Source of the DNA: a virus
Taxonomy: Duplodnaviria; Caudoviricetes
Length of the DNA stretch: 64,000 nt
Strand: one strand, 5' to 3'
Virus record (IMG/VR): IMGVR_UViG_3300033145_002422
Positions 3,441-58,836 of this stretch are shown here, piece after piece (the first letter of the stretch is position 1; each line of letters opens with the position of its first letter). The notes beneath the pieces are model-generated. The model had not been told where the DNA came from, did not search any database, and saw nothing but the letters and a program-made list of their open reading frames with translations. A program made the translations under genes and the position numbers.

Positions 3441-6400
3441 ATGATAAATATATTCAGTTTATTAAAAGAATCTCAAGCACAACAAATATACATACAAGGA
3501 CAGCCAGTAGATGATTTAATAGGAACTGTTCATACAATGTACGGGAGGGGCGCACCTACAGTTTATGATGATTCTGGATTTAATAAAAATGATTATGTTA
3601 ATCCTGTTTTTCAGAATATAGCAGGAATGGTTAGCGGAGATAGGATTCCAGTTCAAAATTCGATTAAAGCATTATATTTACTTGCTAAATATCAAAATAG
3701 ACAACTTCCTAATTATAATACTCTCAAATTAAATATACAAACTTTAATAAATCAGGTAACAAATGTTACGGTAGATACATCTATTCCTACTAATAAAATT
3801 ATTGCCATGGGGAATAACCAGTGGGGATTAATATTTAAGATAAATAACTTAACTAAGCAGAGAACAATAAATAAAGCTGTTAAAGAAGAGTTGTTAAGGC
3901 AGGGTAGAAGTCCGGATGAGTCTTGGAGATATTTTAGGGCGGATAGTAGTCAAGGATTAGATATTTACCAAATAAGTCCATCTGTTATATCTATTGTTGC
4001 AACTATATTGCAAAATGAGGGATATGACGTTACGGATATGATTCAGAAGCCGCAGGACCAATCACAGCAAGCTCTAAAGAGATTTGATGCAACTCTCCTA
4101 TCAGATGGTGGTGTTGAAATAGGATTCGATTATAATGCCGATTTGGTTAAATTTGTAAAAAAGGCAAGAAGAAGAAGATTTAATGGGAAAGAGAGAAGAA
4201 CTTGGACAATATATGAAGATAAGAAGTTTTTTGAAGAATTGGAAAAATATTTAAGTAGCAACGGATATGACACATCCAAATTAAAGGATATTATAAATGG
4301 TAAGGCGATTGCTGCCCCAGCAGAAGTAAGGCAAGAGAAAAAGGGAGAAGTTCTTTATTATGATATCTATGATTTGACAAATGGTATGTTTCATATATCT
4401 ATTGTTCCTACTGGTGGTTTATTGTCAAAAGATATATCTGAATTTTTAAGATTTAGTTTTCCTTATTGGGTAGGTAGAAAAAAATTTAAAGAGGCCCAGG
4501 ATCCAAATAATACAGAATTAAAAGATGCTGCAATAAGAACTGTTAATTTAAATCCAAGTTATGTTTCTATAGATTCTAGGACTGGAAAAAAATTATGGGG
4601 TCATGAAATAAGAGGATTATTTTCTGATTATTTCGCTATTGAAGGAATTATATCTAAATTCGGATATGATACAAAAGGTTTTAGAGACATCGTTATGAGT
4701 CTTTATAAAAGAGGCGTTGTTCAAAAAGATGCGATTCCAGGAGTTCTTGATGGATTTAGAAAAAAAGACCCAACTGGAGAAAGAGCATTTGCGAATGATG
4801 ATGAGGCTTTTTATAAAACTATAGATAATAACTATAAATTAAGACAAAAAGATGGAACTGAAAAAGAATTATGGCCTTTGCAAAAAGAGGGTGTGGCGTT
4901 TTTATATAGTAGAAAATCTGCTATACTTGGCGATTCGACTGGTTCTGGAAAATGTCAATCCAAAGATACTTTAGTAAACTCTAACTTGGGAGTTTTTGAG
5001 ATACAAGAGTTGTGGAATAAATATGGAAATATAGAAAATATTTATTTTATAGATAATGAAGATGAGGAGATTATATATCCCAAAGAAGAAATATTTGTTA
5101 ATTCTATTGATGATAATGGAAAAGTTGTTAAAGGAAAGGTTAATTTTCTATATAGGGAGAAATATAGAGGTAAGCTTAGAAAAATAAAGACATCGAACGG
5201 TAAAGAGATAACCGTTTCTTTTCCTCATAAATTTTTAACTCACTGTGGTTGGTCTAATAATTTGAAAGTAGGAGATATAGTTTGCTCTTCTTCTAGACAG
5301 CCGCACCTTAGCAATTCATATAGCAACATCAGTAGCGAGTTAGCTGAATTTTTGGCATGGCAAATTGCCGAGGGGCATGAAACAAAATATGGTATAAGTA
5401 TTACCCAATCAGACATAAAAGTGTTAGATAAATTAAAAGATATATTTGACAATTTTGATTTTAGAGTTAGTTATAACAAAGATAGAAAAATCAAATCTTC
5501 CATAATTAAACCTAATAACAGAACATCTTATTTATCTATATCATCTATTTCTTATAAGAAATATCTTGAATCTATAGGGTATCAATGGGGAAGAAAATCT
5601 AAAGACAAAGAAATTCCAGATTGCGTGATGATGGCTAAAGATGATATTGTTAAAATTTTTTTGAAATCGTTTTTTGATGCTGAAGGATATTGTAGCAAGA
5701 AGTCTCGTAGAATTGGTATAACATCGGCGAGTAAAAAACTAATCTTTCAATTATCTATTCTTTTGCAGAGATTTAATATTTTATGTACTTTTAGAACAAT
5801 GATGAAATGTGCTACAAATGGTACAAAGATAAAAAGACCGTATTACGAATTAAATATTATAGGTTCTGGTGTTCATAAGTTTATGGATGAGATAGGGTTC
5901 GGTTATGCATATAAGAATGATAACTTTAATAATATAAAATCAGAGACTAATTTTAATAAAGAGGGGAAGCCAGTACATATAGTTTTATCTAAATTTTTTG
6001 ATAATTATGATTTGCCGTTGAAATTGTTAAATATTCCATCAAAGAATTTTGTTATCGGTGCAAGAGGCTGGAATTCAGATACTATAAATAAAACTATAAA
6101 AAGTTTTGATTCTCTTGTTGTTGGAGATACAAAAGAAGAATATGGAAAGTTACGAAGGTCTAAATGGACGGATAAAACAACTGCTGTTCTAGAACGAATA
6201 GATAATAAATTAGTTCAGGAGATTGTTAAAGACTTATCTATTATGGCGAATAATGATTTACAGTATGAAAAGATAATTTCTATAGAAATTATAGAATATG
6301 ATGATTATATTTATGATTTAAATATAGAAAAATATCATAATTATATAGCAGAAAATCTTATTTGCCACAATACTTATGAATCCTTAGTAGCCGCTGATAT

Positions 6401-7832: not shown

Positions 7833-8668
7833 AGTTGTCCAAGTTCTTTTGCGTATTGAAGCATAGATTTTTGATTTGTATTCATTCTTGGTTTAATGCC
7901 TCTTAATCCTTTCTTAAGACTATTGTATTGTGGATGATTGATATATGCTTTTGCAGCAGCGGCCCAATTTCCGGAGTTTATTAAATCAGTAATTTTTTTA
8001 CGATTTCCTTTTGGAAAAAGATCGCCCCTATAGACCGCATTAACTAATGCTATTTGAACATATTGTGGATATGAACCAAAGTTTGGTAATGAATCTTTTG
8101 CTCTATTAATATGCTTGTCTAAATCATATTCATAAAATAATTTATACATTTGATCTTCCGTTAGTTTTTTCTTTTTATCGATTATGTCATTGTATTCTTG
8201 ATTGGATATTCCTAAAACTTTATTAAATATAGAACGTGACTCAGGGATTATAAGATGCCCTATTCCTATGGTCGGTTTTCCAATTCCATCATTATATACT
8301 CTCAAACTTTTTCCTTCGTATGGTATTAAATTTTCAGCAAATGGTTTATAATTTTGAGAAATATTTGTTTTTTCTACAGGTATTTCTTCTTTAGCACCTG
8401 GAATCTCTTTTATTTTATTTTCGGCATATGGAAGGCTTCTTTGTACAAGTGGTATTTTTTTTTCAGAAATCATTGTTTGAAGCTGTTGTTTGATGACTAC
8501 GGGGTTATTATTGTGTTTTTCTGCAATTTTATTTGCTTCTTGTGGAGAAATTCCGAGGTATACTAGCATAGGAATTAATGGGATCATAATTGGAAGAAGG
8601 AATTTTCCCCAATCCCATGAATATTTGTATAGGTAACATTCGTATTGACTTTGTTTGTACCAGTTCAT
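7829..8668 (-). CDS. T4-type (GH24) lysozyme with an N-terminal hydrophobic segment
   Basis: E-x8-D-x5-T triad EGKSLRVYNDGIGKPTIGIGH; starts MNWYKQSQ; hydrophobic FLLPIMIPLIPMLVYLGI. Confidence 0.85.
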   Translation of the reverse strand: MNWYKQSQYECYLYKYSWDWGKFLLPIMIPLIPMLVYLGISPQEANKIAEKHNNNPVVIKQQLQTMISEKKIPLVQRSLPYAENKIKEIPGAKEEIPVEKTNISQNYKPFAENLIPYEGKSLRVYNDGIGKPTIGIGHLIIPESRSIFNKVLGISNQEYNDIIDKKKKLTEDQMYKLFYEYDLDKHINRAKDSLPNFGSYPQYVQIALVNAVYRGDLFPKGNRKKITDLINSGNWAAAAKAYINHPQYNSLKKGLRGIKPRMNTNQKSMLQYAKELGQL

Positions 8669-37650: not shown

Positions 37651-40600
37651 ATGGCTATTAAGTTTCATCTACCAGATAAAAATACTGATAAGAAGAAGAT
37701 GGCGGCATCTTCTGGATCATACCATTCTTCTACTCAAAAAACTCAAATGAGATATGCTTCTAGTCAATCTGTTAATTTACCAATAACTAAAAATTCGCAA
37801 TATGCTGGTTCTGCTGCTAATGTTACAATGACTCAGCCTATGTTTTTCTCGCCTTTACATACGCCTCAGAATTGGCAGATTGCTAGTAAGCGCAGAGAAA
37901 TATATCAATGGTCTAGATTTTATTATGAGAATGAACCCAAGGTAGCTGCTGGAGTAGATTTTTATTCGCAATTTCCAATGAATGGATTTAGATTAGAATG
38001 TAAGAGCAAAAAGATATTAAAATATTTTGAAAAAATAGTAAAAGATTTGAGATTAAATCACTGGTTAAAATTAATTAGTCATGAATATTATTTGTTAGGT
38101 GATGTATTTCCTTTTTTAGAAATTGAATGTCCTATTTGTGGAGGCTCAGGTGTAGATTTAGAAGGAAATTTATGTAATCATCCAGGTGGAAAGATAAAAA
38201 GAATTGTTGTTTTAAATCCTGATTGGATTGAAGTTCAACAAAATGTTATTGCATCTGAACCTCTTGTGGCTTTAATTCCAGATGAAGAATTAAGAATGAT
38301 TGTTACCCGAAGACAGCCAAAACAGATATATGATAGATTGCCAGCTAAATTAATAGAAATGGTTTCTACTGGTCAACCTATTCCGCTATCGAACAGATGT
38401 GTGAGTCATTTAAAACATAATGCAAGTCCATACGGTACATACGGAACATCTATGCTTCGTAGATTATTTACGATGCTTGCATATAAGACAAAACTTATTA
38501 CAGCTAACTGGATTGTTGCTGAAAGATTAATTCTTCCAGTTAGAGTTGTTAAGATTGGAGATAAAGATCGTCCAGCGAGTGTTGATGATATTGCAGATGC
38601 TTCTAATCAGTTGTCTGCTGTTGCTAATGATCCTAATTTAACTATTGTTACCCATCATGCTTTTGATTATGAGTGGTACGGGGCTTGCTATTCTTCTGAT
38701 ACAGAAATACTTACAAAAGATGGTTGGAAACATTTTTATGATATATCTGATAACGGTATAGAGGTGGCAACATACAATAAAGATAGTGGCAAGATGGAAT
38801 ATCAAATGCCTTTGGAATATCATGAGTATGATTTTAAATCAAACAGCAAGTTGAAAATGTATCATTTTAATCACAAATCTGTTGATGTGATGGTTACTCC
38901 GAACCATAGGATGCTTATCGAGAGAAATGGAAAAATGATGGAAATTTATTCTCAAGATGTTAAACATGATGATAAATTTGTATCAACTGCCGACTGGGAT
39001 GGGCAGATTCCTGACGTTATGCCATATAAAAAATCCGCTTTAAGTCACATGAGTCTTGACGATTATTTAAGATTTATTGGTTATTATATTTCTGAAGGTG
39101 GGTTAAAAATAGAAAAAAATAAAAATCTTGTTAAAGATAAGATTATTCAAGCTTGTTCGATAAGCCAATCTAAATTTAGCGATTGTTATAACGACATAGA
39201 AGATGCGGTTTGTACGGCTTATTCCAAATACTCAACATATCATGATGATAGAGGAAGTGGTTGTTCGTTATTCGGTATCAATAGTGTAGAAATAGCTAGA
39301 TATTTAGCAGCAGAATTCGGCACTCATGCTTACAACAAAACTATTCCTTCTTGGATTAAAAATCTACCAAAGGATAGGTTGAAAGTTCTTTATGACGCTA
39401 TGATGAGCGGCGATGGAGATGTTAGAGAAGATGGAGAAAAACCAAGATATAGATATGTAACTACTTCAAAAAACTTAGCTGATGATTTTTCTGAGATATG
39501 TTTTAAATTAGGATATTTTACCACAACTCAGAAAGAGAAGTATACAAAGTCAAAAAATAGAAGAAATATTTATAGATTGTATTGGTCTGAAAAAAGAAAA
39601 GAAACTAAATTTAATATACGAAAACAACATATTTCTAGAGAAGAATATAATGGAAAAGTTTACTGTGTAAAGGTTCCTAATAGTTGGCTCGTTGTCAGAA
39701 GAAATGGACGGATTTCCATTCAAGGTAACACCGGCAAGATACACAATATTACTAGTGAATTAGAACAGATAGGTAAAGAACTTCTTGATGGTTTAATGTT
39801 GAACCAGAGCCTTTTGAACGGGGAAATGGGCGCTTATTGCCATAGTGAAGATACCTTAACATTAACTGATTCTGGATTTAAAAGATACGATGAGATTACC
39901 AAGAAAGATAAAATAGCATGTTATAATCCGGATACTAAGAAACTGGAATATCACAAATATAAAGAAAAGTATGTTTATGATTATAATGGAGAAATGGTTA
40001 ATTTCAAGACCGATAAGATAGATATTAAAGTTACTCCAAATCATAGAATGTTTATACAGCCTAGAGGTAAAAAAGGATTTAGATTTATAGAAGCTAAAGA
40101 TGTTAGGGCAAGAGCAAAGTTGATCCAGTCTGTTGATGGATTCGATGGCAGTTATCAAAAAGAAATTACTATTGGGGATGAAACCTATTCTATATATGAT
40201 TTCTGCCAGATGATTGGATATTATGCTTCTGAGGGTTCTGTTTCAGAGGAAAAGAGAGAAAATAGAATTAAGGGAATAAAAACATTAAATATTCACCAAT
40301 CTATAAATGGAAAAGCTAGAAGTGGAATATGCGAATTATATAGCAGGATGTTTGATACTGGATATGAATCAGAAAATAGCGTTTCTATTTATAAGCCAGA
40401 ATTAGCTAAATATCTTTCTGAAAACTGTGGTCGTCATTCTTATTTCAAAAAAATACCTCAATTTGTTAAAAATCTTTCTTCTGAATGTTTGGAAGTAGTT
40501 TTGAAAGCCTTATTAGATGGAGACGGTTCTTATAATATAAGTAATGATGGAAGGAAGAATGGTCATTATAGATATTATACCAGTAGCGATCAACTTGCAA

Positions 40601-43218: not shown

Positions 43219-46200
43219 ATGAGTATAATAAAAAAAGCTATAAAAATAGGAGAAATGGTAGAATTTGAGACTCTTAATAAACCGAAGTGGTTAGAGTATA
43301 ATATGTCTAAGTTTGCTTCTATGAATATGAGCAGTGATGGTTTGGGTGGATTTGATTTGAAAAATGCTATATCAAAGAATCCAGATCATTTATTTGCTAA
43401 AATATTTGCTATTAAAAAGGATGAAGTAAATGATAATGGGGATGCATTCCCAGAAGAAGAGTTGAGGCTGGCCGCTGAAACTTTTATTGGAGTTCCTATT
43501 TTTTGCAATCATCAAAATGATGATATAGAAAAAGCTAGGGGTAAATGTGTTCATGCATGGTATGATGAATCTAAAGGTGGTATATATATTATTTCCATGG
43601 TTGATAGAGTTGCGTATCCTAGATTGGCAAGGGGAATAGAACAGGGATATGTTAATGGAACGTCTATGGGAGCATCAAGAGGTCATGATTTAGTATTAAT
43701 GAGTAATGGAGACAATAGGAGAGTAGATAAATTGGTTGTAGATGATGAGATTGTTACTCATAGTGGCAAAAAAGAAAAAGTAAAAGTTATATGTAAAACT
43801 CAAGAGCATGAAGAATTATACAATATAACGTGGAATGGAGGAAACAGTTTAGCGTTAAGTTATGAACATCCTGTTTTAATATTGTCTCAGGAAGATATTT
43901 ATTATACTTGTCCTAATGGGAAAAAGTATAGAAAAACTATAGAAGATATAAATAACATAAAAGCTGTTTTTAGAGAAGCTAGTTTGGTGAAAACGGGTGA
44001 TTATGTATTAGAATATATTAATAATGATGTAAAAAATATAGATGGAATAGATGATGATATGGCTTTTATTTTAGGCGTTTATGCCGCAGAAGGATATGTT
44101 TCTGAGAAATCTGTAGGTTTTTGTTTTGGGTTAGATGAAGAATGTATTAATGGTAATTTTACTAAATTAGTCAAGTTATTAAATGAAAAATACCCAGAAT
44201 GTAAAATAAGAATAGATAAAGTTATAGAAAGAAATGGTTTATATATTGTCACGTGGAATCCTGAATTAGCAGATAATTGTAAAAAATATATAGGATGTGG
44301 TAGCCATAATAAATTTGTTCATAACGATTTATTGACATTGGATACAGAAAAACAAAAGATATTTTTATCAGCTTATTTAGATGGTGATGGGTGTATAGTA
44401 AGAAATAGAATATTGAAAGATGGAAATAGTTCTGGACAAGGTTCGATGCAAGTATCATCTGCATCTGAGAGGTTGCTTAGTGGAATTAGAAAGATTTGCT
44501 TAAGAATTAAAGTACCAGCAACTTTGAGTGCTCATGAAAGAATTGCTTCATCATCTACTATTATGAATAATAATACAGAATATACTGAATATATACTGTA
44601 TATGACTAATTCTATTTCTGAAAAACTAGAGAAATATAGTTTAAAAGCTAGAAATAATAAAAAAGCTATTCAAAATAAGTTTGATTCGTTTTTTTACGAT
44701 AATAAAAAATATATAGCTCATAGAGTTAAATCAATCGAAATTATTAATAACGATCAGCCTACTTATTATGTTCAAATAGGGGATACTGATGATAGCAATA
44801 GTGACCATAGTTATATTCTAAATGGTATCGCAACTCATAATTGTTCTGTAGAATATTCAGTATGTTCAATTTGTCATAATAAGGCTCATACAGCAGATGA
44901 GTATTGTGAACATATTAAAAATCATAAAAATAGAAAACATTCAGGAGAAATTGATTGCCAGTTTAAAAAAAGTTTATCAAAACCAGCAGGTGATTGCCCT
45001 ATTTGCGGAAATTCAAGTGGTAAATTAAAACATAAAGAAGCAAATGTATATGAGTTTAACTATGGAGTTAAATTTATAGAGGATAGTTTTGTAGTTAACC
45101 CGGCATGTCATGATTGTTTAGTCGAAGATATTCTTAATCTTTCAGAATTGGCAAGAAAAGTAGCTTATTTGAAGGATAGGGTAGAAAAATTATCTTCTTG
45201 TCCTTCTGGAACTTGTGCAACAAATTCTAATATGATTAAAGCTGCTGGAAAAAAGGAAATAGATGACCTTCATGAGGCAATGGATAAAATAGAAAGAGTA
45301 GCTAAAAGTATGATGTCTCAAAAGGCTCATGTTTCTATGGAATATGTAAGTGATTTAGTTGATGCGCTAGCTAGTGTACAGTCAATTACTGATGAATTGA
45401 TAGAAATGGGATATATTCAACTTCCATCTCCTACAACTGGAGTTGAAGAAGTTGAACTCCCTAAAACATCTACTGGTGAGGTTGATGAAAAAATTGTTCC
45501 GCAGCCACAAATGCAGCAACAAATGCAACAACAACCATCTATTCCAACGCCTCCAGAAGTAGCCGCTGAGAATATTGGCGAGCTTGGAAGTATTACTAAA
45601 CCGAAATTTTCTTTTGAAAATAATGAAAAAAATAAAAAAATAAAAGAGGATTTTTTATCTAAATATGCTAATTTGAAAGAACAGGTTGTTTTATTGCAAT
45701 CTATGTTAGGTAAACTATATTTTGATAGTACTAATAATTCAACAAATAAGGAGTCTAAGATAATGGATAACAAGAAGACTAGTTCAAGTGAAAGTGAGGA
45801 TATAAAGGTAGCAGAACATTCTAATGATGTTATTACTGAAAAACAACTTGATGCAGTTGAAACTGAAGGTTTAGGAAAACGAATTGATAAATCTCCTGAT
45901 GTTATTATGGAGAAGGAGTTGGATAAGGCTCCTTATACAAAAGTTAATTTTACTAATAGTGATAGCCCAACTGAAAGGTCTGGGTCATATGAAACTATTA
46001 CTGAAGATCAGCTTGAAACTATTAGTAGTATTAATGCTGCCAGATGGAATGACTTCCCAGAAGTTATTACAGAAAAACAATGGACTGAAGCTCATAGAGC
46101 TGTTGGTTCTGTCCTTAGTCAGGATCAGTCTGAAGTTATTACTGAAAAGCAGCTTGTTGATTTCTTAGATAAACACAGATATACTACTGATTTAGATATT

Positions 46201-49200
46201 ATTACTGAAAAGCAATTAGATGCTGCAAAGACGGATCAAACACAGAGATGGGCATATAAATATGATGCTAAATCTCTTGTTAAAAAAGCGGAAGAAGTTA
46301 TTTCTGATGCTATAGCATATTATAATAAAACTCCAGATGAAGTTATAACTGCTGCTTCTTATTTTAATGATAGTCCAAAGAATATAGATAAGGCTTCTTT
46401 ACTTGTTTTGATTAATGCACTTCCGAATAAATCAGCTAATAGAAATAATGAAAAGAAAAGATACCAGTATTTTTCTAAGTTAGCTTCTAGTAGCGTTAAG
46501 ACTCCTAATACAATAGATTCTCTTATTATTAGTATGGCAGATCATATTGGCGAAGTTAAAGCTGATGATTTAATTCAAGCTGTTAAGCATGTAGCTAATA
46601 GTGAAAAATCAATGAGAAGGATTAATGAACTTGTTTCTATTAAGTTGTCTTCTGAAATTGATAATATAAAAGTTTTAGATAAAACTTCCCAATTGGAAAA
46701 CGCTATAAAAGAAATTGGTAAACCAGAAGATGGAGTTTATCAGGTTCATGCTAGTGTTGAAGAAATTGGTGTAAGTTCTCAGAATAAAAAAGCATTTTTA
46801 AAGGGTGTTATAAAATTAGCAAATCAAGAAATTGCTAATGATATAGGCGAGAAAATAGATACTGGTTTGGTTAAAGTTGATTTGGATGAGGAAAATGGAG
46901 TTGTTGTAGCTACACTTAAGGATAATAATATATTGACTGAAGAAGAAAAAGATTCCTTAATAAAAACATATGCATGGCTTAATAGTAAGGATGAAGCAGT
47001 AGTAAAGGATGATGAAGATAAAGATATTTGTGAAACAAAGACAGATGAAACCGATAAAGCGGCAAATGTAGTTGCATCTGCGAATAAAGAATCTTTAGTT
47101 AAAGAGTCCCAGATGTTTGGGGGAGAAATGGGCGGTCAAGGCGGAGCTTCTCAGGCTCCTGGCGCTGGTGCTACTCTTCCTCAACCTCCAGCAGCAGGTG
47201 CTGCTCAACCTCCGCTTGAGAGTTTTGAGCAGTCTGATCTTTCTATAGAACCAGAAGACGAAATGGGTTCTATGCAACCAAAACCTCCGGGAACTATGTG
47301 TGCTGTTTGTGGAAGCGATGATGTAGATGTTGTTAAGGGTGAAGGAAAGTGTAATAATTGTGGAGCAGAATTTAAATATAAAGTTGATATAGAAATTACT
47401 AAATATCCAGGAATTATGGATAATGATACGTCTGATGAAAATCAGGATGTTGAATCATCTAATACTGAAGAGGGTATGGAAGCTGGATTACCAGCAGGAG
47501 AAGGATTTGCTATGCCAGAGGGCGGCGCTCCTACGGCTATGCCGATGGCTGCTTCTGTAAAAAATGATTCAGTTCGTAAGTTTGCAGGATTTGCAATGAT
47601 GACTCAGTTAAAACCAGAAGTCGTATCGAAATCTAAATCAGTAAAGATTGGTTCAGTAAGTCCAATTACTGGTTCAACAAATACGCTAAGTCTTGGAAAT
47701 GGTATATATGCATGTTTAGATACAGGTATTAAATATAAACTATCGTTTGCTATACAAAAGGATAATCCTAAAAATATATATGCTGAGTGGAGATGGAATC
47801 CAGCAACAACTGTTGAATGCGAAGGTTGCTCAAGAGCTAAAAAGGCTTTTGTAGATTCTTTAAAATCAATCGGAATGGAAGAAAATGCGTTTGATGCTTT
47901 AAGTTTGAAAGAAAAGGGTAAGACTATTCTTGCTATGAAGGAAAAAGGATTATTTAATCATATTAAGACTGCTTCTAAGAAATCAGGATCAGTCATTGCT
48001 GAATATAAGCAAGCTTATGGAGAATTTAGCGATAAATTCCCAATAGAGTCGTGTGTAGAGAAGCTAGCTCGTAGATATGGAAAAGATGCTTTAGCTTTAA
48101 GCGGTCCATGTGAAGGGAAGCCATTAGCAGATTGTGTATGTAATACTCTTAAGAAGGCTGGAGTTTTCTCTTATGGATTAGCTATGAAAGTAGCTAGTAT
48201 ATGGACAGATAAATCCGGAACAGTAGAATGTTTAGAAGATTGTGTAAGGCAGGGATTTGATCTCAAGCAAGCATCTTCTGTTTGTGAAGCTTTAAGAGCA
48301 AAGTATGCTCAGTTTGATGATCAATTCGCTGATGAGTTAGAATCAGATTTTAATGATGATGATGATGATGATATAAATAATACAGATGATGATGTTGATG
48401 TAGATGTTGGATTCATGGATGATAATGATCCATTTGAAGATGAAGGATCTGGTTCTGTAACTGTTTCGCTTCCATTGGAAGTTTTGGAACAGATTGATGA
48501 GGCTATAGATGTTGCTATAGGAGAAAATGCAGAAGGAGAATCTCATCATAACCAGGAAATACCAGATGTTGATGTTGCCGTAGATATTCCAGAAGGTGCA
48601 GCAGATGTTATTGATGAAGTATCTGATGAAGCACTTGATGAGAATTTAGATATAGATGAAAGATCTGAATCTGATGAAATAGAAGAAGGAGATATGTCTG
48701 ATGGATCAGAGGTTGATGTTGTTGTAGATGTTCCTGGTGATTCAACTATGAATGAAGATGTTAAAGATTTAGAGGGTGGAGAAATTGATTCTTATTCTGG
48801 AAGTAAGAAGGGGCCAGGAATTCCAGATGGGACAGGGCCAGGAAGTCGTGGAGATAAGAAAAATTTAGGTGTTCCAGATGGTACAGGCCCAGGAAGAAAT
48901 TCTGATGAGTGTCCATTTAATGAAGATAAAGATGAAGACGAAGATGAAGAAAAAGACGAAGATGAAGAAAAAAATAAAAATAATAAAGGAAAAAATGATG
49001 AAGATTCAGAACTAGATGAAGAAGAGCCTTCTGATGAAGGGGAAGAGTTTAAAAAAGGACAAGACCAAATAGGAACACAATCTGATATGAATGAATTTGA
49101 ATCCCAGGCTAATTCAATGAAGTCTGGATATATAGGACATACTGGGGAGGTTAATCTTGACCTTTCTAGAGTTGTTGAACTTTTAAATAAGAAAGCTTCA

Positions 49201-50205
49201 GAAGATGGTATTGTAAGTAGAAAAGAGCTTTCTGACAAGTCGAAGGCTGTTGTTCAGGAAAATGCTCAAGATACAAAAGAAATTCAACCAATTTCTGGGA
49301 AATCATCTATAGGTGGAGAGGATGAGTTTAAAGCCGATAAGCCTGATGTTCCATCTGGAAAAGGTACTATTGGAAAAGAAAATCCTCCAAAAGAAATTGA
49401 GCCTGTAGAGATTCCAGTTGGTAGCGAACCTATGGGTAATGAAGAATTAGAAGGTGGTGATGATAGAGCTACTGGCGGATCGGATGGAGCAGGAAATTCA
49501 AAGGCAGCAGGAATGCAGTCAACAAAAGAAAAGTTAGCTGGTCTTGCTGATAGAATAATTGAAGCTGGAGAGAAAAAGATTAAACCTAAGAAACCAGTTT
49601 CTGAAGATGAAGATATTCAGCCAATTTCTGGTGGTGAAAAGAGTAAGATTGGAAAAGAAGAAGCAATTAAAGAGAAAGACGTTGGTAAGGTAAAAACCGA
49701 TAGCGGATTCTTAGGAAAGGAAAAAGAATCTCTTCAGTCAAAACCAGATGATCCAAAAGATCAGCCAAGCATCCCAGCGGGTGGTGGCAAAATGAAAAAT
49801 GAAACTTTAGATCCTGAAAAACAGGATAGAGATAAAGGAACCGTAATTGCTGGTAGCAATAATGCGCCTAAGGTTCAGATCAATAAAGAAGCTTTTAGAA
49901 TTGCTGGCAGAATGATTGCTGAAGGCATGATTTCTCCTCAAAATCTTGAAACGAAGGTTTCTGAATTGAGCAAATATGAACTTCCTCAGTTGAAAGATAT
50001 TGAAAAGGGTATCTTTGCTTCTAGGAAAGGACTCGATACGGTATCTGACGGGTTAGAGCAATCCGTAGTCATTAATGAAACAAGCAACCAGAAGGCTGCT
50101 AAAACAGAGCTTTCTACTAAGTTGGCAGGCTTGTTTAGTTTAACAAGACAAAATGATTTGGCTCAAAAGACAGATATCGAAATGCAGAATGCTTTCGGTA
50201 GATAA
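43219..50205 (+). CDS. Prohead protease fused to a very long scaffold/core region, intein-containing
   Basis: NDNGDAF.EEEL, F.NHQN (His), GTSMG|C (Ser), CSIC, EDSFV.NPA; acidic C-terminal region; directly upstream of the capsid genes. Confidence 0.82.
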   Translation: MSIIKKAIKIGEMVEFETLNKPKWLEYNMSKFASMNMSSDGLGGFDLKNAISKNPDHLFAKIFAIKKDEVNDNGDAFPEEELRLAAETFIGVPIFCNHQNDDIEKARGKCVHAWYDESKGGIYIISMVDRVAYPRLARGIEQGYVNGTSMGASRGHDLVLMSNGDNRRVDKLVVDDEIVTHSGKKEKVKVICKTQEHEELYNITWNGGNSLALSYEHPVLILSQEDIYYTCPNGKKYRKTIEDINNIKAVFREASLVKTGDYVLEYINNDVKNIDGIDDDMAFILGVYAAEGYVSEKSVGFCFGLDEECINGNFTKLVKLLNEKYPECKIRIDKVIERNGLYIVTWNPELADNCKKYIGCGSHNKFVHNDLLTLDTEKQKIFLSAYLDGDGCIVRNRILKDGNSSGQGSMQVSSASERLLSGIRKICLRIKVPATLSAHERIASSSTIMNNNTEYTEYILYMTNSISEKLEKYSLKARNNKKAIQNKFDSFFYDNKKYIAHRVKSIEIINNDQPTYYVQIGDTDDSNSDHSYILNGIATHNCSVEYSVCSICHNKAHTADEYCEHIKNHKNRKHSGEIDCQFKKSLSKPAGDCPICGNSSGKLKHKEANVYEFNYGVKFIEDSFVVNPACHDCLVEDILNLSELARKVAYLKDRVEKLSSCPSGTCATNSNMIKAAGKKEIDDLHEAMDKIERVAKSMMSQKAHVSMEYVSDLVDALASVQSITDELIEMGYIQLPSPTTGVEEVELPKTSTGEVDEKIVPQPQMQQQMQQQPSIPTPPEVAAENIGELGSITKPKFSFENNEKNKKIKEDFLSKYANLKEQVVLLQSMLGKLYFDSTNNSTNKESKIMDNKKTSSSESEDIKVAEHSNDVITEKQLDAVETEGLGKRIDKSPDVIMEKELDKAPYTKVNFTNSDSPTERSGSYETITEDQLETISSINAARWNDFPEVITEKQWTEAHRAVGSVLSQDQSEVITEKQLVDFLDKHRYTTDLDIITEKQLDAAKTDQTQRWAYKYDAKSLVKKAEEVISDAIAYYNKTPDEVITAASYFNDSPKNIDKASLLVLINALPNKSANRNNEKKRYQYFSKLASSSVKTPNTIDSLIISMADHIGEVKADDLIQAVKHVANSEKSMRRINELVSIKLSSEIDNIKVLDKTSQLENAIKEIGKPEDGVYQVHASVEEIGVSSQNKKAFLKGVIKLANQEIANDIGEKIDTGLVKVDLDEENGVVVATLKDNNILTEEEKDSLIKTYAWLNSKDEAVVKDDEDKDICETKTDETDKAANVVASANKESLVKESQMFGGEMGGQGGASQAPGAGATLPQPPAAGAAQPPLESFEQSDLSIEPEDEMGSMQPKPPGTMCAVCGSDDVDVVKGEGKCNNCGAEFKYKVDIEITKYPGIMDNDTSDENQDVESSNTEEGMEAGLPAGEGFAMPEGGAPTAMPMAASVKNDSVRKFAGFAMMTQLKPEVVSKSKSVKIGSVSPITGSTNTLSLGNGIYACLDTGIKYKLSFAIQKDNPKNIYAEWRWNPATTVECEGCSRAKKAFVDSLKSIGMEENAFDALSLKEKGKTILAMKEKGLFNHIKTASKKSGSVIAEYKQAYGEFSDKFPIESCVEKLARRYGKDALALSGPCEGKPLADCVCNTLKKAGVFSYGLAMKVASIWTDKSGTVECLEDCVRQGFDLKQASSVCEALRAKYAQFDDQFADELESDFNDDDDDDINNTDDDVDVDVGFMDDNDPFEDEGSGSVTVSLPLEVLEQIDEAIDVAIGENAEGESHHNQEIPDVDVAVDIPEGAADVIDEVSDEALDENLDIDERSESDEIEEGDMSDGSEVDVVVDVPGDSTMNEDVKDLEGGEIDSYSGSKKGPGIPDGTGPGSRGDKKNLGVPDGTGPGRNSDECPFNEDKDEDEDEEKDEDEEKNKNNKGKNDEDSELDEEEPSDEGEEFKKGQDQIGTQSDMNEFESQANSMKSGYIGHTGEVNLDLSRVVELLNKKASEDGIVSRKELSDKSKAVVQENAQDTKEIQPISGKSSIGGEDEFKADKPDVPSGKGTIGKENPPKEIEPVEIPVGSEPMGNEELEGGDDRATGGSDGAGNSKAAGMQSTKEKLAGLADRIIEAGEKKIKPKKPVSEDEDIQPISGGEKSKIGKEEAIKEKDVGKVKTDSGFLGKEKESLQSKPDDPKDQPSIPAGGGKMKNETLDPEKQDRDKGTVIAGSNNAPKVQINKEAFRIAGRMIAEGMISPQNLETKVSELSKYELPQLKDIEKGIFASRKGLDTVSDGLEQSVVINETSNQKAAKTELSTKLAGLFSLTRQNDLAQKTDIEMQNAFGR
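43672..44841 (+). mobile_element. Ala1 intein with LAGLIDADG endonuclease (390 aa; class 2 candidate)
   Basis: SMG|ASRGHDLVLMSNG...SYEHP...NGIATHN|C; LGVYAAEG and AYLDGDG. Confidence 0.85.
45645..45675 (+). promoter_or_regulatory. Putative internal late promoter for the nested scaffold
   Basis: AGAGG-N18-CTAATTT within an AT-rich stretch of the CDS. Confidence 0.4.
45763..50205 (+). CDS. Putative nested in-frame scaffold protein (internal start Met849)
   Basis: AAGGAG 9 nt before an in-frame ATG; promoter-like motif at 45645. Confidence 0.55.
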   Translation: MDNKKTSSSESEDIKVAEHSNDVITEKQLDAVETEGLGKRIDKSPDVIMEKELDKAPYTKVNFTNSDSPTERSGSYETITEDQLETISSINAARWNDFPEVITEKQWTEAHRAVGSVLSQDQSEVITEKQLVDFLDKHRYTTDLDIITEKQLDAAKTDQTQRWAYKYDAKSLVKKAEEVISDAIAYYNKTPDEVITAASYFNDSPKNIDKASLLVLINALPNKSANRNNEKKRYQYFSKLASSSVKTPNTIDSLIISMADHIGEVKADDLIQAVKHVANSEKSMRRINELVSIKLSSEIDNIKVLDKTSQLENAIKEIGKPEDGVYQVHASVEEIGVSSQNKKAFLKGVIKLANQEIANDIGEKIDTGLVKVDLDEENGVVVATLKDNNILTEEEKDSLIKTYAWLNSKDEAVVKDDEDKDICETKTDETDKAANVVASANKESLVKESQMFGGEMGGQGGASQAPGAGATLPQPPAAGAAQPPLESFEQSDLSIEPEDEMGSMQPKPPGTMCAVCGSDDVDVVKGEGKCNNCGAEFKYKVDIEITKYPGIMDNDTSDENQDVESSNTEEGMEAGLPAGEGFAMPEGGAPTAMPMAASVKNDSVRKFAGFAMMTQLKPEVVSKSKSVKIGSVSPITGSTNTLSLGNGIYACLDTGIKYKLSFAIQKDNPKNIYAEWRWNPATTVECEGCSRAKKAFVDSLKSIGMEENAFDALSLKEKGKTILAMKEKGLFNHIKTASKKSGSVIAEYKQAYGEFSDKFPIESCVEKLARRYGKDALALSGPCEGKPLADCVCNTLKKAGVFSYGLAMKVASIWTDKSGTVECLEDCVRQGFDLKQASSVCEALRAKYAQFDDQFADELESDFNDDDDDDINNTDDDVDVDVGFMDDNDPFEDEGSGSVTVSLPLEVLEQIDEAIDVAIGENAEGESHHNQEIPDVDVAVDIPEGAADVIDEVSDEALDENLDIDERSESDEIEEGDMSDGSEVDVVVDVPGDSTMNEDVKDLEGGEIDSYSGSKKGPGIPDGTGPGSRGDKKNLGVPDGTGPGRNSDECPFNEDKDEDEDEEKDEDEEKNKNNKGKNDEDSELDEEEPSDEGEEFKKGQDQIGTQSDMNEFESQANSMKSGYIGHTGEVNLDLSRVVELLNKKASEDGIVSRKELSDKSKAVVQENAQDTKEIQPISGKSSIGGEDEFKADKPDVPSGKGTIGKENPPKEIEPVEIPVGSEPMGNEELEGGDDRATGGSDGAGNSKAAGMQSTKEKLAGLADRIIEAGEKKIKPKKPVSEDEDIQPISGGEKSKIGKEEAIKEKDVGKVKTDSGFLGKEKESLQSKPDDPKDQPSIPAGGGKMKNETLDPEKQDRDKGTVIAGSNNAPKVQINKEAFRIAGRMIAEGMISPQNLETKVSELSKYELPQLKDIEKGIFASRKGLDTVSDGLEQSVVINETSNQKAAKTELSTKLAGLFSLTRQNDLAQKTDIEMQNAFGR

Positions 50206-54062: not shown

Positions 54063-54287
54063 GTGAAGAGCAAAAAATCTAAAAGAGAAAAGATATTTAT
54101 TGATTGGTTTATAAGAATAATGAGTGGAGATATTCCCATTTCAGAAGAATGGGTTAATAATAGATTATTTTTTTATTTTAAAGATGATTATCAAGTTAGT
54201 TTCACAAGAGAAGAAATGTCAGCTATATTACCAGAGATAGATATATTTTGTAAAGAGTTTAACAAATTATTGGATAATGAAGAATAA
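54063..54287 (+). CDS. Hypothetical protein
   Basis: GTG start just after a promoter-like motif; coupled to the next gene. Confidence 0.5.
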   Translation: MKSKKSKREKIFIDWFIRIMSGDIPISEEWVNNRLFFYFKDDYQVSFTREEMSAILPEIDIFCKEFNKLLDNEE

Positions 54288-55537
54288 TGAATTGGTATAA
54301 AGATTCTCAATATGATTCTCAATATATGGTTGAGGAGCAATATGATACTGATATTGGAGATCTTCCTCCAGTTGAGCCTCCAGGAGACGATGCTGGGGGA
54401 GACGATAGTGCTTATGAGCCAGATAACAATATGCAAAAAAAAATAGCAGAATGGTTTAGTAAAGAAGGATTTAAATTATTTAGTTCAGATATATTCGATT
54501 CTATAATGAATAATGTTGAACCAGAAGTAAAAGTCTATTCTCCTATTAAGAATTATCCTACAACTGATAATTTTAGTGTAAGAGGGGATGCCCAAATCAA
54601 TATTCGTTTTAAGGTTATGGAAAGCAATCCTATTTTAAGTACTTTGGAATTCAATGTAAGGATGGGTATATTAAACTCTTCTATGTGGAAATATTTAGGG
54701 ATTCCATATGAGAAGGCTACTAACTATCTAAATAATGGAATATTTATGCATATAGTTTTTTGGTCTGCATTAAGATCGGCTGTTAAAGAGGGTTCCAATA
54801 ACTGTGCTTTTTGGATGTATAATAATGCAGATCAATATATTAATCAATTAAAAGAAAGGATAGTTGATACAACATATGGTTTTGGTTTTAAAAATTCAGA
54901 TATTAATTCTATAACTATAGACAAGAATGGAAATCCTACTTGTGATGGAGATGTTTATATGAATAGTCTTAATGATCCAACTAGATCATTATTTATTGCT
55001 ACAAGACAGATGTATAGGTATTCTATATCTCCATGGTCATTTAGTCAGAAAGAAGCTACTGGTTTTGAAAGTTTAACTACTAAAAATCAAAAGAATGTAA
55101 TTAATGATTTATCTATGATTATTTCTGATATAGAAGATACGGATATTGTTAATAATTTAGATATTCAATTTTCAACCAGTGGTAAGTACATTCCTGCAAC
55201 AAGAGAAACCCCTCCGGAATATCCAGAAGTATATGTTGATTCCATAGAGCCTTCAAGGATATCGCAACAATTTAAGTTTGATGGAAGCGAATCTATTCTT
55301 AGTAGTTTTTCTCCAGATGATCTGAATATAATATTGAATTCGATTCCTAAAGATTTATTAAAAATGTTTATATATAAACAAGATACTACAGGAAGTGTAA
55401 CAACTTATTCATATGGGGAACCAGTAGAAGATGATGTAGATGTAGAGATTTTTATTAATATCGTTTCTGGGAATTCTATAAAAAATGGTGTAGAATTAGT
55501 ATTTGATATAGAGGGAGATCTTAAAGGATTCGGTTAA
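54287..55537 (+). CDS. Hypothetical protein (MNWYKDSQ start)
   Basis: ORF; PATRETPPEYPE motif. Confidence 0.65.
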   Translation: MNWYKDSQYDSQYMVEEQYDTDIGDLPPVEPPGDDAGGDDSAYEPDNNMQKKIAEWFSKEGFKLFSSDIFDSIMNNVEPEVKVYSPIKNYPTTDNFSVRGDAQINIRFKVMESNPILSTLEFNVRMGILNSSMWKYLGIPYEKATNYLNNGIFMHIVFWSALRSAVKEGSNNCAFWMYNNADQYINQLKERIVDTTYGFGFKNSDINSITIDKNGNPTCDGDVYMNSLNDPTRSLFIATRQMYRYSISPWSFSQKEATGFESLTTKNQKNVINDLSMIISDIEDTDIVNNLDIQFSTSGKYIPATRETPPEYPEVYVDSIEPSRISQQFKFDGSESILSSFSPDDLNIILNSIPKDLLKMFIYKQDTTGSVTTYSYGEPVEDDVDVEIFINIVSGNSIKNGVELVFDIEGDLKGFG

Positions 55538-55574
55538 ATTGTATGGTAGTGTAATATAGTTATTGGAGAAAATT

Positions 55575-55925
55575 ATGAAAATTATTAAAACGGCTCAAAT
55601 TACTGGTGTTTCCAAACAATCTCTTAAGAATAAAATCTATAAAGTAATAGGTCCAAATATTAAGGGGTTTTTTAACGACCAATCCTGGGAAGCGATTAGA
55701 AATAATATTTGGAATGTATTAGATAAAATGGGATTAGATTGGTCTATGACTGATGCAAGTTATGATGGTAATGTTCCTCCGCAAAGTAAGACTTGGAAAT
55801 TCGAAATTGATTTTACTAATAACAAGGGAAGACCAGACAAATTGTATGGAAATGTTGTAGCGGCAGGTGCCGGAAGCGTTTCAGATCCATTGGATCGTTA
55901 TGATATTACTTTTATTATAGGATAG
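55575..55925 (+). CDS. Hypothetical protein (MKIIKTAQ start)
   Basis: Start moved to 55575 after GGAG; AAGAGSV.DPL.RYD motif. Confidence 0.65.
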   Translation: MKIIKTAQITGVSKQSLKNKIYKVIGPNIKGFFNDQSWEAIRNNIWNVLDKMGLDWSMTDASYDGNVPPQSKTWKFEIDFTNNKGRPDKLYGNVVAAGAGSVSDPLDRYDITFIIG

Positions 55926-55930: not shown

Positions 55931-56233
55931 ATGAAAATTATAAAGACATCTAAAGCTAAAGCTAAAGATATTGAAAGAATTCCTGGAGGAAAAGCTAAAG
56001 GGCATGATTGTTCAGAATACGATAAAAATCAGCTATCCAAGGGTCTAAAGATAGAAAAAGAGCACGTAGAAGGTTCTGATCTTCCTAAAAAGGTTAAAGA
56101 CGAAGTAGCAAGAGAAATTTCGAAAGATCATTTGGAAGAGTCTCAGGATAAGAAAGGTAAAAAAGGTGGTAAGTATTATGATAAGTTGCAGAAATTAGAA
56201 AAACGAATTAAAGAAGAAATAGACGAAAAATAA
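55931..56233 (+). CDS. Conserved phage protein (DUF5661-like)
   Basis: GG.A...QL.KG.KIEKEH...A.EI.KDHL.E...YYDKL pattern. Confidence 0.65.
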   Translation: MKIIKTSKAKAKDIERIPGGKAKGHDCSEYDKNQLSKGLKIEKEHVEGSDLPKKVKDEVAREISKDHLEESQDKKGKKGGKYYDKLQKLEKRIKEEIDEK

Positions 56234-56234: not shown

Positions 56235-56588
56235 ATGAATGAATTAAAAAGAAAAATAGCAGATAAGAGAAAATTCATTATTGACAAATATCTAAATGGA
56301 GATATTAGTAAAAGTGATAAAAAACAAGTTATAGAAGATTTTAATTATCTTTGTATTCCTTTTTGTGGACAATCCTGTATTCCTGAAAGAATATATACCG
56401 AAGGTATTGTAACAAAAACAAATATTGAAAAATTAAAAAAAGAAATTGATGAAATAGAAATATGTAAGTTGCCATCGCTTGGTTTTTATATACATGAGCT
56501 TCATGAGAAATGGCAATTATCATCAGATGATGCTAAGTATCTTCAGGGATATATATATTTCTCTTTTCTTAAAAGAGATATTAAGTGA
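56235..56588 (+). CDS. Hypothetical protein
   Basis: Operon position. Confidence 0.55.
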   Translation: MNELKRKIADKRKFIIDKYLNGDISKSDKKQVIEDFNYLCIPFCGQSCIPERIYTEGIVTKTNIEKLKKEIDEIEICKLPSLGFYIHELHEKWQLSSDDAKYLQGYIYFSFLKRDIK

Positions 56589-57289
56589 ATTGGTATATAA
56601 AATTATGTTCAAAAAATATTTTTGTATCACAAGATATAAAGATGCAGATTGAAGAAATTTCTTCTGAAATATTTTATAAATTAAATCAATTTAATTTGTC
56701 AAAAAAAGAATCAGAGTTTGTTAAGACAATACAGGTTGGATTGTTGTCTATTAATATTTTTATGGCTAAATCAAACCAGCAATCGACAAGTTCTTTAGCT
56801 AGTACTGGAATAAATAATAAAGAAGAATATTTTATAAATGTATATGTGACTAATTTAAGATGGATGGCAGAGTTTGATAAAGACGATTCATATTATCGTC
56901 GTATTTTATATGATGCTATATTACATGAAGTAGTTCATAATATAGATCCAAAACTTACAACAAGAGAGAATGAATTTAGATACAAGGAAAAACACGAAGA
57001 AATTGAAAGATTGGAATATGAAAATGATAAAAACTGGAAAAATGAATATTTTAATTCACAACCTGAATTTGATGCATTCAGTGCTCAAATCTCAGATAAT
57101 ATTCTTAGTTTTCTTATCTCTAATCCATTAAAAAAGGATTTTGTTTTAGACATATTAAGATCGAATGATATAAGGAAAATAACTGAAATAATAGGAACTA
57201 TTAATGCTGGTTTTATAGTTAATATCGACGAGGGAAATAAACGAAGACTAAAACAAAGAATATATAATGACATTAAGCATTTATTATAG
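56585..57289 (+). CDS. Putative zinc metallopeptidase-like protein
   Basis: HEVVH plus downstream Y.N...EFDAF; MNWY start. Confidence 0.6.
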   Translation: MNWYIKLCSKNIFVSQDIKMQIEEISSEIFYKLNQFNLSKKESEFVKTIQVGLLSINIFMAKSNQQSTSSLASTGINNKEEYFINVYVTNLRWMAEFDKDDSYYRRILYDAILHEVVHNIDPKLTTRENEFRYKEKHEEIERLEYENDKNWKNEYFNSQPEFDAFSAQISDNILSFLISNPLKKDFVLDILRSNDIRKITEIIGTINAGFIVNIDEGNKRRLKQRIYNDIKHLL

Positions 57290-57354: not shown

Positions 57355-58836
57355 ATGAGAATTATAGAGTCTGCTAAAAATAAACAGAAACCTAAGAAAA
57401 AAGAATCTTACTGTGGCTGCAATGCTAAAACTGCTCAATATAATCCTGAAGGTGGTGGATATGGAGATTCTGGAAATTATGATAGGGGCAGGGCTTTAAC
57501 AGATGATTTAACAAAAATGGATTATGAAACAGAAGATAATGCCATGGAACCAGAATTTGGAATGGGCATAGATTTAGTTGGTATCTATACAAAAGAAAAC
57601 TATCTTGCTTATGTTGTTACTTTAGAAGAGTATAAGAAAGCAGGAAGTTCTTTTTGGATTGATTATTTAGGAGAAGAGTACGATCCTTCTTCTATGAAAA
57701 TAGTTTTTCTTAAAGATGTATCAGAAGACGATGCTCCTAATTTATTAACTCAGGGAACTAGTAAGCAAATATTCAGAGATGGGTATGAAGCTGCTCAAGT
57801 TGCTGCTCCATATATTGAACAAAGTCTGTTAGAAGCATCTAAAAAATTATATTTTAATTTAACAAAAATGGCTAAAAATGAATCAATATGTAATATAGAT
57901 GATTGTGAGTTGAATCATTGTAAAATTTGCGGAAAACATATTCCTTATGGGCATAACTATTGTAGGGATTGTACGGAACTTGAGGAAGAAAATGAGGATA
58001 GAAAAAGTTCTTCCTATTTCGATTTAACAAAGATAGCTGATGAAGATGCAGATGCAGATGCAGTAAAAGTGCCAAAACCAGCGGATTACCGTCGAGGTAA
58101 AGGTTATGGTTTCGGAGGCGCACCACGAGATCTCAATAAGCCACAGCATGTTAGGTCAAAATTGCCACCAAAGAATCCTTCGAATAAAGGCGTTGGTCTT
58201 GGTGGTGCGCCACGTCCCTCTGAAGATGCAGATAAGAATAAGAATAAGAATAAGAATAAGAAAAAATTACCTCCATGGTTGAAATATAAAAAGAAATCTT
58301 CTTATTATTTTGATATTACTAAAACATCTCAATATGATGACGATTTTGGAGGAGATGATTATCAAGAACAAGAACCTTATGAAAATGATTTGCAAGATTT
58401 TAGCGATCAAGAAGCTTGGGAAGATTCTCAAGCTGACATGAGAGATTTGCAGGGAGATAACGATACTGATCACGAAAATGAAGATTCTTCTTATACTATA
58501 GAACCAGATAGGGATGGAGAAGGTTTTGTAGTCAAGAAACACGATATATATCCCCAAGGTTCTGTGTTAGAAGGGAGAGGAAGAGATTCTAGTATAGATT
58601 TTGGAGATACAATAGAGGAATTAATTGACAAATATCCAGACGCAGAAATTTTAGATAATCCATCTATAAATAGAACTACTTATGAAGATGCAATGAGAAT
58701 GCCAAAAACAGAAGGCTTTGATGAGGCAGATGCTGGTGAAAGATGGGAACAGGAAGAAGAGCCAAGAAGCGATTATGAAAATGATACTCCATTAGGACAG
58801 GAATACGGCGATGGATTTGAAAGCGATTTAGATTAA
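57355..58836 (+). CDS. Acidic modular protein, putative internal head polyprotein
   Basis: Start moved to 57355; repeated YF[ND][LI]TKx[AS] boundaries. Confidence 0.65.
   Translation: MRIIESAKNKQKPKKKESYCGCNAKTAQYNPEGGGYGDSGNYDRGRALTDDLTKMDYETEDNAMEPEFGMGIDLVGIYTKENYLAYVVTLEEYKKAGSSFWIDYLGEEYDPSSMKIVFLKDVSEDDAPNLLTQGTSKQIFRDGYEAAQVAAPYIEQSLLEASKKLYFNLTKMAKNESICNIDDCELNHCKICGKHIPYGHNYCRDCTELEEENEDRKSSSYFDLTKIADEDADADAVKVPKPADYRRGKGYGFGGAPRDLNKPQHVRSKLPPKNPSNKGVGLGGAPRPSEDADKNKNKNKNKKKLPPWLKYKKKSSYYFDITKTSQYDDDFGGDDYQEQEPYENDLQDFSDQEAWEDSQADMRDLQGDNDTDHENEDSSYTIEPDRDGEGFVVKKHDIYPQGSVLEGRGRDSSIDFGDTIEELIDKYPDAEILDNPSINRTTYEDAMRMPKTEGFDEADAGERWEQEEEPRSDYENDTPLGQEYGDGFESDLD

Follow-up and report, generated by a model that had tools for sequence, protein, structure and literature searches.

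An eight-residue peptide on unrelated proteins of a phage G-like huge phage: a candidate head-assembly address and processing signal

We analyzed a 64,000-nt stretch of viral DNA (the window; IMG/VR record IMGVR_UViG_3300033145_002422; parent contig 255,885 bp) for a short peptide, referred to here as the tag, that recurs on many of its 59 encoded proteins and opens about ten of them, which are otherwise unrelated. The tag is a unit of eight residues with the form [M/F]-[N/D/K]-hydrophobic-x-K-x-[A/S]-[Q/K]. The motif is real, it is selected at the level of the peptide, it occurs clade-wide, it is portable among unrelated proteins, and it stands in register at domain boundaries of head proteins. 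With moderate confidence we propose that it would act as a head-assembly address and processing signal in a clade of phage G-like huge phages. The window belongs to an uncultured relative of Bacillus phage G. Its major head protein shares 54% identity with gp27 of Bacillus/Lysinibacillus phage G and 72–79% with the products of open reading frames (ORFs) on several IMG/VR contigs (58–548 kb). The G+C content is 30%, nearly every gene lies on the plus strand, and the commonest residue of the window proteome is lysine. All positions are listed in Table 1.

The original prediction had described a recurring K-x-[A/S]-Q peptide on unrelated proteins and had named beforehand, as a test, its enrichment over a lysine-rich background. 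With shuffles that keep the composition of each protein, this enrichment was confirmed: K.[AS]Q starts within residues 1–15 of 7 of the 59 proteins, compared with 0.31 expected (maximum of 3 in 500 shuffles). Across the whole window proteome the pattern occurs 19 times versus 7.8 expected, and an N-terminal core of the form hydrophobic-hydrophobic-K-x-[A/S] occurs 7 times versus 0.63 expected. Apart from the tag the carriers are mutually unrelated (all-versus-all BLASTP without the first 10 residues, no match better than E = 0.15). The claim of a shared peptide turned out stronger than it had been put. The wording K-x-[A/S]-Q, on the other hand, was too narrow, since the unit has eight residues with an anchoring Met or Phe and a loose position 8 (Q, K, D, S or I). 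Internal copies have a Phe where the N-terminal ones have the start Met. Of the 19 K.[AS]Q sites, 8 are followed directly by Tyr or Phe (p = 8e-5).

A search matrix of 10 columns, built from seed sites, recovered several sites outside the seed set: residue 1579 of the 43219–50205 protein, the C-terminus of the protein starting at 35876, residue 43 of the portal and residue 2 of the protein starting at 26096. The latter is indeed a carrier, as predicted; its true copy consists of residues 2–9 and not of the R-K-I-A-Q further downstream that had been pointed out. The protein starting at 27334, also proposed as a carrier, begins with M-N-F-Y-K and is weak (the A/S position is missing and the score lies below the matrix threshold). 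The helicase is a doubtful entry in the list: its copy at residues 7–12 matches the core without the Met anchor and could be the single chance hit expected. NrdJ, dUTPase, the sigma factor, terminase and the glycosyltransferases correctly had been named as lacking an N-terminal motif. For the genes starting at 30375, 35876, 55575 and 57355 the chosen start does not give the longest ORF; a Shine-Dalgarno-like purine run precedes each of these starts, which were selected partly on the presence of the motif.

The nucleotide sequences behind the tags differ. Two MNWYK copies show four synonymous differences, including a serine encoded by AGT in one copy and by TCT in the other, and the MKIIK copies likewise differ in their codons. 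The upstream DNA is not common to the tagged genes. Taken together, the codon differences and the unshared upstream DNA indicate that selection acts on the peptide and not on the DNA. The forms of the tag are also exchanged between orthologues. The protein starting at 55575 carries the MKIIK form and its orthologue in the relative L038 starts with M-S-W-Y-K-Q-S-Q, while homologues of the DUF5661 protein starting at 55931 either lack a tag or carry one of the MKIIK or the MNWYK form.

To follow the tag through related phages, IMG/VR was searched with a back-translated pattern for M-N-W-Y-K-x-[A/S]-Q. This yielded 69 copies at 55 loci on 37 contigs, nearly all of them ORF-initial. Adjacent genes on these contigs often each carry an MNWYK tag, and several of the loci encode close homologues of the capsid, decoration and giant proteins of the window. 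A control with Phe in place of Met (F-N-W-Y-K-x-[A/S]-Q) returned from IMG/VR unrelated small contigs only, mostly with off-frame copies of one repeat. Among 60 distinct tagged proteins of relatives the mean column identity is 5%, the tag alone being shared. Phage G carries a version of its own, M-K-R-L-[I/V/M]-K-K-[A/S], on approximately 22 of its ~730 ORFs; a loose pattern of this MKRL type is found 28 times compared with ~5 expected, and eight to ten of the tagged genes lie next to the head genes in the first 40 kb. Genes with such starts include those at 11937, 16055, 17765, 28218, 35181, 38447 and 39023 of NC_023719.

Comparison with the syntenic relative G003 shows that the head genes conserved between the two are without a tag at their starts. 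Most of the small tagged genes of the window are accessory and have no orthologue there. At the position of the 27112 gene, G003 encodes a 74-aa protein starting with M-A-N-W-F-K-K-A-Q; one positional analogue in G003 has no detectable similarity, yet is tagged. The orthologue of the 26096 protein retains F-N-L-x-K-K-A-S at residues 4–11. Within the window, tagged genes make up 9 of the 32 genes in the structural block from the terminase gene to the gene starting at 57355 and 1 of the 27 elsewhere (Fisher p = 0.013).

The motif is also found inside proteins of the head module. The N-terminal domain of the 43219–50205 protein is a head maturation protease, split by an intein, and the remainder is long, acidic and scaffold-like. 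A match to phrog_18299 was obtained with the N-extein of the window protein (E 4e-6) and with the intein-free homologue at 7558–8277 of the relative L016 (E 2e-19). The protease motifs T-N-H and G-x-S-M-G are invariant. Among the PDB fold matches of an AlphaFold model of the protease domain, T4 gp21 (PDB entry 5jbl) ranked best (probability 0.96, E 0.013), followed by herpesvirus proteases; these matches are weak because the model, calculated from a 3-sequence alignment, has a predicted local distance difference test score (pLDDT) of 52. A phmmer search with the protease domain among PDB sequences gave nothing meaningful. The phage encodes a prohead protease of the gp21/assemblin kind as part of a giant scaffold protein, the evidence for the fold being weak.

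A copy of hydrophobic-hydrophobic-K-x-A-x stands on either side of the protease domain in the window, in the relatives L009 and L016 and in gp19 of phage G, always in the same alignment columns. Further conserved sites precede the Gly-rich linker, lie within a Cys-rich region and precede the acidic tail, so that at least six boundary sites are conserved in register amid diverged flanks. The scaffold additionally contains six evenly spaced repeats of the form V-I-T-[E/Q]-x-Q-L. The protein starting at 35876 has orthologues in four relatives (39–45% identity) with its three Phe-anchored copies in register; one copy lies within a diverged acidic stretch and the last two bracket a conserved C-terminal domain. 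An ESM Atlas search with this domain gave nothing usable. Motif-like A-Q sites precede the conserved parts of both the 32615 and the 34480 proteins. For the former, L-K-I-A-Q and then Y-V-G stand at this boundary in the G003 orthologue, behind a 240-aa extension. The flanks of the in-register sites are diverged, acidic or Gly-rich.

Based on these comparisons we propose the following role for the peptide. Its position at conserved boundaries of the protease-scaffold, the portal and the portal-adjacent protein makes an address and cutting label for head cargo the most likely explanation. In the head-core proteins (the protease-scaffold polyprotein, the portal and the protein upstream of the portal) the motif would mark the boundaries at which a gp21/assemblin-type protease trims propeptides and separates domains. 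At the N-terminus of small, fast-evolving accessory proteins it would dock these to the assembling core, so that the prohead forms around them. Removal of the tag would probably follow, and the cargo would leave together with the DNA at the next infection. The product of 50856–51725 would form the shell into which the tagged cargo goes. We infer core binding, packaging, cleavage, the exact scissile bond and injection from the sequences. As the last motif residue varies, the cut could follow [A/S], follow Q, or not take place. A co-model of the intein-free L009 protease (residues 45–235) with the N-terminal 40 residues of a tagged protein from the same contig gave an ipSAE of 0.02, which was counted neither way on binding.

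The capsid targeting and cleavage suggested in the original prediction is partly supported, by a comparative argument made up of the gp21-like protease, the motifs flanking it, the boundaries in register, the clustering in the structural block and the accessory nature of most tagged genes. The accompanying idea that Glu-ending motifs are missing holds for the tags, which have no Glu at conserved positions, and is not established for the V-I-T-E-x-Q-L repeats, which would fit a T4-like I-x-E. Since these repeats are compatible with a cut after I-x-E as well as with a post-Gln cut, an abandonment of Glu sites is unproven. A more far-reaching version, which we put forward only tentatively, is that of an 'unbundled polyvalent protein' system in phage G-like megaphages. 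Here any gene that gains the start peptide would become capsid cargo, dozens of stand-alone effectors would be preloaded and co-injected, and a protease of gp21 fold, its site preference shifted from Glu to a Lys-x-Ala/Ser-Gln type, would recognize the tag and cut it off. The effectors meant are anti-defence proteins such as Tad6, acetyltransferases, nucleotidyltransferases, kinases, muramidases and even metabolic enzymes.

Several observations weigh against an address for head cargo. The core of five residues is degenerate, with internal copies dispersed through many proteins, and of these only the orthologue-checked sites carry weight. The most conspicuous scaffold repeat, V-I-T-[E/Q]-x-Q-L, is only loosely tag-like. 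The tagged lysozyme gene lies in the early region on the opposite strand, and the tagged genes of G003 are located 25–500 kb away from the head module. The cargo is odd in part (glucose-6-phosphate dehydrogenase (G6PD), aldo/keto reductase, helix-turn-helix (HTH) regulators), and some tags directly precede a transmembrane segment. G6PD, aldo/keto reductase and membrane-bound carriers are less expected in a capsid, and other explanations therefore stay alive.

In one of these the tag has nothing to do with the head and serves as a degron or recruitment signal for an AAA+ unfoldase or chaperone, or in membrane or compartment sorting, so that the likeness to the head sites is coincidental. Its basic-hydrophobic-basic character resembles generic chaperone or ClpX N-motifs. 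Metabolic enzymes and regulators need no packaging, a transmembrane helix follows several of the tags, and phage G encodes both ClpX and ClpP (PMC12484599). A phage-encoded ClpP, however, does not track the tag: of 5 relatives that bear the tag and are complete or nearly so, 3 lack it. The conservation of the same eight residues, Phe-anchored, inside head-module proteins and the concentration of tagged genes in the structural block of the window also speak against this explanation, which we regard as unlikely.

Docking without cleavage would explain other features of the motif. The tag would be a short linear motif that attaches to the portal, the scaffold or the inside of the HK97-fold shell, in the manner of encapsulin cargo-loading peptides, and remains on the protein, with the boundary copies acting as contacts and not as cut sites. 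Consistent with this, disordered acidic proteins carry multivalent copies (five in the 57355 protein, four in the 35876 protein), the six scaffold repeats are evenly spaced, and the poorly constrained last residue (Q, K, S, D, I) is unusual for a P1 position. The motif, however, brackets the protease domain itself, and its sites at junctions of variable and conserved sequence, followed by Gly-rich or acidic linkers, are arranged as the propeptide junctions of T4 and phiKZ are (PMC9026906). We consider docking alone distinctly unlikely.

A different cutter is conceivable as well. The protein encoded at 56585–57289, inside the tagged cluster, contains the sequence H-E-V-V-H and is a possible zincin peptidase of the kind predicted to process polyvalent proteins (zincin-like metallopeptidases; PMC5512222). 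Its nearest named Atlas clusters, LPD23 and SprT-like (0.85–0.86), are leads only, and it matches no Pfam or PHROG family. In four phages it is the serine protease domain that the motif flanks, which points to autoprocessing, and a zincin in place of the prohead protease appears very improbable. Finally, a translation-start or DNA-level effect (A/T-rich codon ramp, recombination cassette, promoter remnant) or a compositional accident could be imagined for a lysine-rich proteome at this G+C content, as M-K-I-I-K-like starts are common in AT-rich genomes; it is largely excluded, and its likelihood next to negligible, in view of the composition-keeping shuffles, the conservation of residues 7–8 beyond the ramp, the different serine codon families, the interchange of MKIIK and MNWYK on orthologues, the conserved Phe-anchored internal copies and the unshared upstream DNA.

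Regarding the candidate cargo, the tagged proteins of relatives represent 29 Pfam families. Among them are HTH regulators, GNATs, the Tad6 Thoeris inhibitor, G6PD, aldo/keto reductase, the kinase-like AAA_33, PolyA_pol, a Pol-beta nucleotidyltransferase and SLT. These classes would fit injected early effectors, and they overlap with the repertoire of polyvalent proteins, which are predicted to enter the host along with the phage DNA (Iyer et al. 2017, PMC5512222). The tagged proteins of the window are single-domain or outside known families. One of them, encoded at 55931–56233, reached 26.6 bits with Pfam DUF5661 (PF18905; E 8e-6), just under the gathering cut-off of 27 bits; a precomputed database annotation assigns PF18905 to it, and phmmer found 199 homologues. 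Elsewhere DUF5661 is a module of large multi-enzyme proteins of the polyvalent kind, together with SOD, 2H phosphoesterase/ligase, Topo IB, HAD-SAK and PolyA_pol.

In such large multi-domain proteins of other phages K-[T/V]-A was observed within the 20 residues before DUF5661 in approximately 10 of 70 cases versus ~1 expected (examples are P0013, P0018, P0020, P0022, P0076, P0130 and P0151, some of them interrelated). This hints that a boundary motif of the K-T-A type may be used outside the tag-bearing clade. In phage G (NC_023719) several MKRL-type proteins, encoded at 35181, 81748, 163172 (minus strand), 245994 and 446709, continue with [F/Y/M]-H-[G/H/T]-T-[S/D], and MNWYK-tagged proteins of relatives have similar H-G-T or H-G-S starts. 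The phage G proteins with this His-containing motif might form a tagged, ADP-ribosyltransferase-like multigene family.

Table 1. Positions of tags, tag-like sites and associated head genes in the window.
Feature	Position (nt)	Strand	Basis or remark
Helicase residues 7–12, L-L-K-E-S-Q	3459..3476	+	core match only, possibly chance
MNWYK-form N-terminal tag on protein with transmembrane segment and lysozyme domain (gene 7829–8668)	8645..8668	-	Phage_lysozyme PF00959, E 4e-5
Large terminase (TerL)	24151–26025		phrog_2
Tag F-N-L-x-K-x-S-K, residues 2–9 of acidic 338-aa protein directly after TerL	26096..26122	+	matrix
MKIIK-form N-terminal tag, 72-aa protein	27112..27135	+	sequence pattern
Weak tag-like N-terminus M-N-F-Y-K, 151-aa protein	27334..27357	+	below matrix threshold
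MKVIK-form N-terminal tag, 95-aa protein	30375..30398	+	K.[AS]Q count, matrix, start-site check
Motif-like site ending A-Q, then Y-V-G; opens conserved domain of 451-aa protein (32615–33970)	32717..32737	+	
Motif-like I-M-Q-A-Q near N-terminus of protein 34480–35163	34504..34524	+	V-M-V-A-Q in G003
434-aa acidic protein just upstream of portal; degenerate N-terminal tag and three Phe-anchored internal copies	35876..37180	+	
Phe-anchored copies in the 35876–37180 protein	36179–36202, 36710–36733, 37142–37165	+	
Portal, interrupted by inteins	37651–42048		
Portal residues 43–50, copy directly before conserved portal core	37777..37800	+	G003: F-P-I-T-K-N-A-Q, then Y-A-G
2328-aa prohead protease and scaffold-like polyprotein, intein at aa 153–541	43219..50205	+	
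Copies in 43219–50205: N-terminus; second copy; after protease domain	43219–43242; 43303–43320; 45229–45252	+	
Further copies in 43219–50205: before Gly-rich linker; intervening copy; before acidic tail	47092–47112; 47953–47976; 48292–48312	+	
Six V-I-T-E-K-Q-L repeats of 43219–50205	45826–46218	+	
Major head protein, HK97-type, 289 aa, untagged	50856–51725	+	phrog_2522, E 6e-64
MNWYK-form N-terminal tag, 416-aa protein outside known families	54287..54310	+	
MKIIK-form N-terminal tag, 116-aa protein	55575..55598	+	L038 orthologue has M-S-W-Y-K form
MKIIK-form N-terminal tag ending S-K, 100-aa DUF5661 protein	55931..55954	+	homologue comparison
Weak tag-like N-terminus (GTG start, N-W-Y-I-K), 234-aa protein with H-E-x-x-H	56585..56608	+	
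493-aa acidic protein containing a zinc ribbon, MRIIE-form N-terminal tag	57355..58836	+	
Sites in the 57355 protein: K-T-A-Q; three Phe-anchored copies	57421–57438; 57853–57876, 58018–58041, 58309–58332	+	

The gene directly upstream of the capsid gene (50223–50750) encodes a 175-aa protein that is kept in L009, L016 and G003 and occupies the position of the capsid decoration protein gp26 of phage G. Directly downstream of the major head protein gene we observed a free-standing homing endonuclease of 721 aa (51861–54026), composed of a LAGLIDADG N-terminal part and an HNH-type part (phrog_3339, E 7e-98). Exact copies of the 14-mer G-T-[G/A]-T-A-A-T-A-T-A-G-T-[T/A]-A are located at 55549–55562 and 57311–57324, 12–30 nt upstream of two tagged genes. 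This element is a possible promoter, but it showed no enrichment in the window with mismatches permitted.

At least four inteins in essential genes were found within the 64 kb. The LAGLIDADG intein of the prohead protease (43675–44841) is located immediately behind the catalytic-serine motif G-T-S-M-G. It ends with H-N followed by Cys, its first residue is seemingly Ala, and the homologues in L009, L016 and G003 have no counterpart. Due to this position directly after the catalytic-serine motif, head maturation would depend on protein splicing. The helicase (3441–7832) contains Intein_splicing and LAGLIDADG matches at aa 520–977, and the portal contains two LAGLIDADG/intein stretches as well as a C-terminal DUF559 endonuclease domain. 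NrdJ (14389–18045) is probably intein-interrupted; its G003 orthologue aligns from aa 585 only.

If the proposed role is correct, it would provide a sequence-only rule for which genes of huge phages encode capsid-carried proteins delivered at infection, and it would reveal a new specificity within the gp21/assemblin protease family. It would also explain how anti-defence proteins are deployed ahead of any gene expression and would yield a minimal tag of eight residues with which foreign proteins could be packed into very large capsids. The proposal is directly testable because phage G can be cultivated and has its own version of the tag. A description of the tag was not found in the literature searched on MNWYK, phage G, prohead proteases and capsid targeting sequences, and the tagged gene products go unmentioned in the main text of the multi-omics paper on phage G.

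The capsid targeting sequence (CTS) of phage T4 is said to go back to work by Mullaney and Black in 1996. In T4, hypervariable internal proteins are guided to the scaffolding core by a CTS of 10 residues. The protease that removes it, gp21, bears its cleavage motif at its own termini (PMC9026906). The CTS carriers are the internal proteins IPI/II/III and Alt (reviewed in PMC9026906). Several features are alike: a ~10-residue N-terminal peptide is found on unrelated, fast-evolving accessory proteins, likely early-acting effectors; a protease of probable gp21/assemblin fold has the motif at its own termini; and related sites occur in core or scaffold proteins. The tagged genes mostly have no G003 orthologue, comparable to the hypervariable internal-protein genes of T4. 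In contrast to T4, the tag contains no (L/I)-x-E and no Glu at conserved positions and, following an invariant Lys, ends with [A/S]-[Q/K]; the T4-type cut after Glu could be matched by the scaffold repeat V-I-T-E-x-Q-L alone. The protease, moreover, is fused to a scaffold polyprotein of more than 2000 aa and is intein-split in the window, the capsid protein is small, HK97-type and gp27-like (phage G) instead of gp23-like, and the role of the tag is proposed here from sequence alone. We see about an even chance that the tag is a capsid address of the CTS kind, with a motif and in a lineage that are both new.

Head maturation in phiKZ, 201phi2-1 and SPN3US involves gp175/gp245, which cut after Glu in the motif S/A/G-x-E (PMC9026906, PMC10052503). 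Common to these giant phages and the window is that a short motif with A or S would be the trimming site of many head proteins, with redundant sites in propeptides. The motif here is K-x-[A/S]-[Q/K] and not a small residue-x-Glu, the phages belong to another lineage, and no report describes dozens of their small proteins as sharing a portable N-terminal peptide of constant length. Encapsulin cargo-loading peptides usually stand at the C-terminus, have a high content of Gly, Ser and Leu and are left uncleaved, and encapsulins have no portal, protease or DNA. In the window, a short terminal peptide would likewise make unrelated enzymes the cargo of an HK97-fold shell, whereas portal, terminase and protease are present beside this HK97-like shell. 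With polyvalent proteins (PMC5512222) the tagged proteins share the modules DUF5661, GNAT, Pol-beta nucleotidyltransferase, kinase and muramidase. A polyvalent protein combines two to fifteen effector domains in one giant polypeptide, whereas the modules here are separate small genes, each with its own eight-residue tag.

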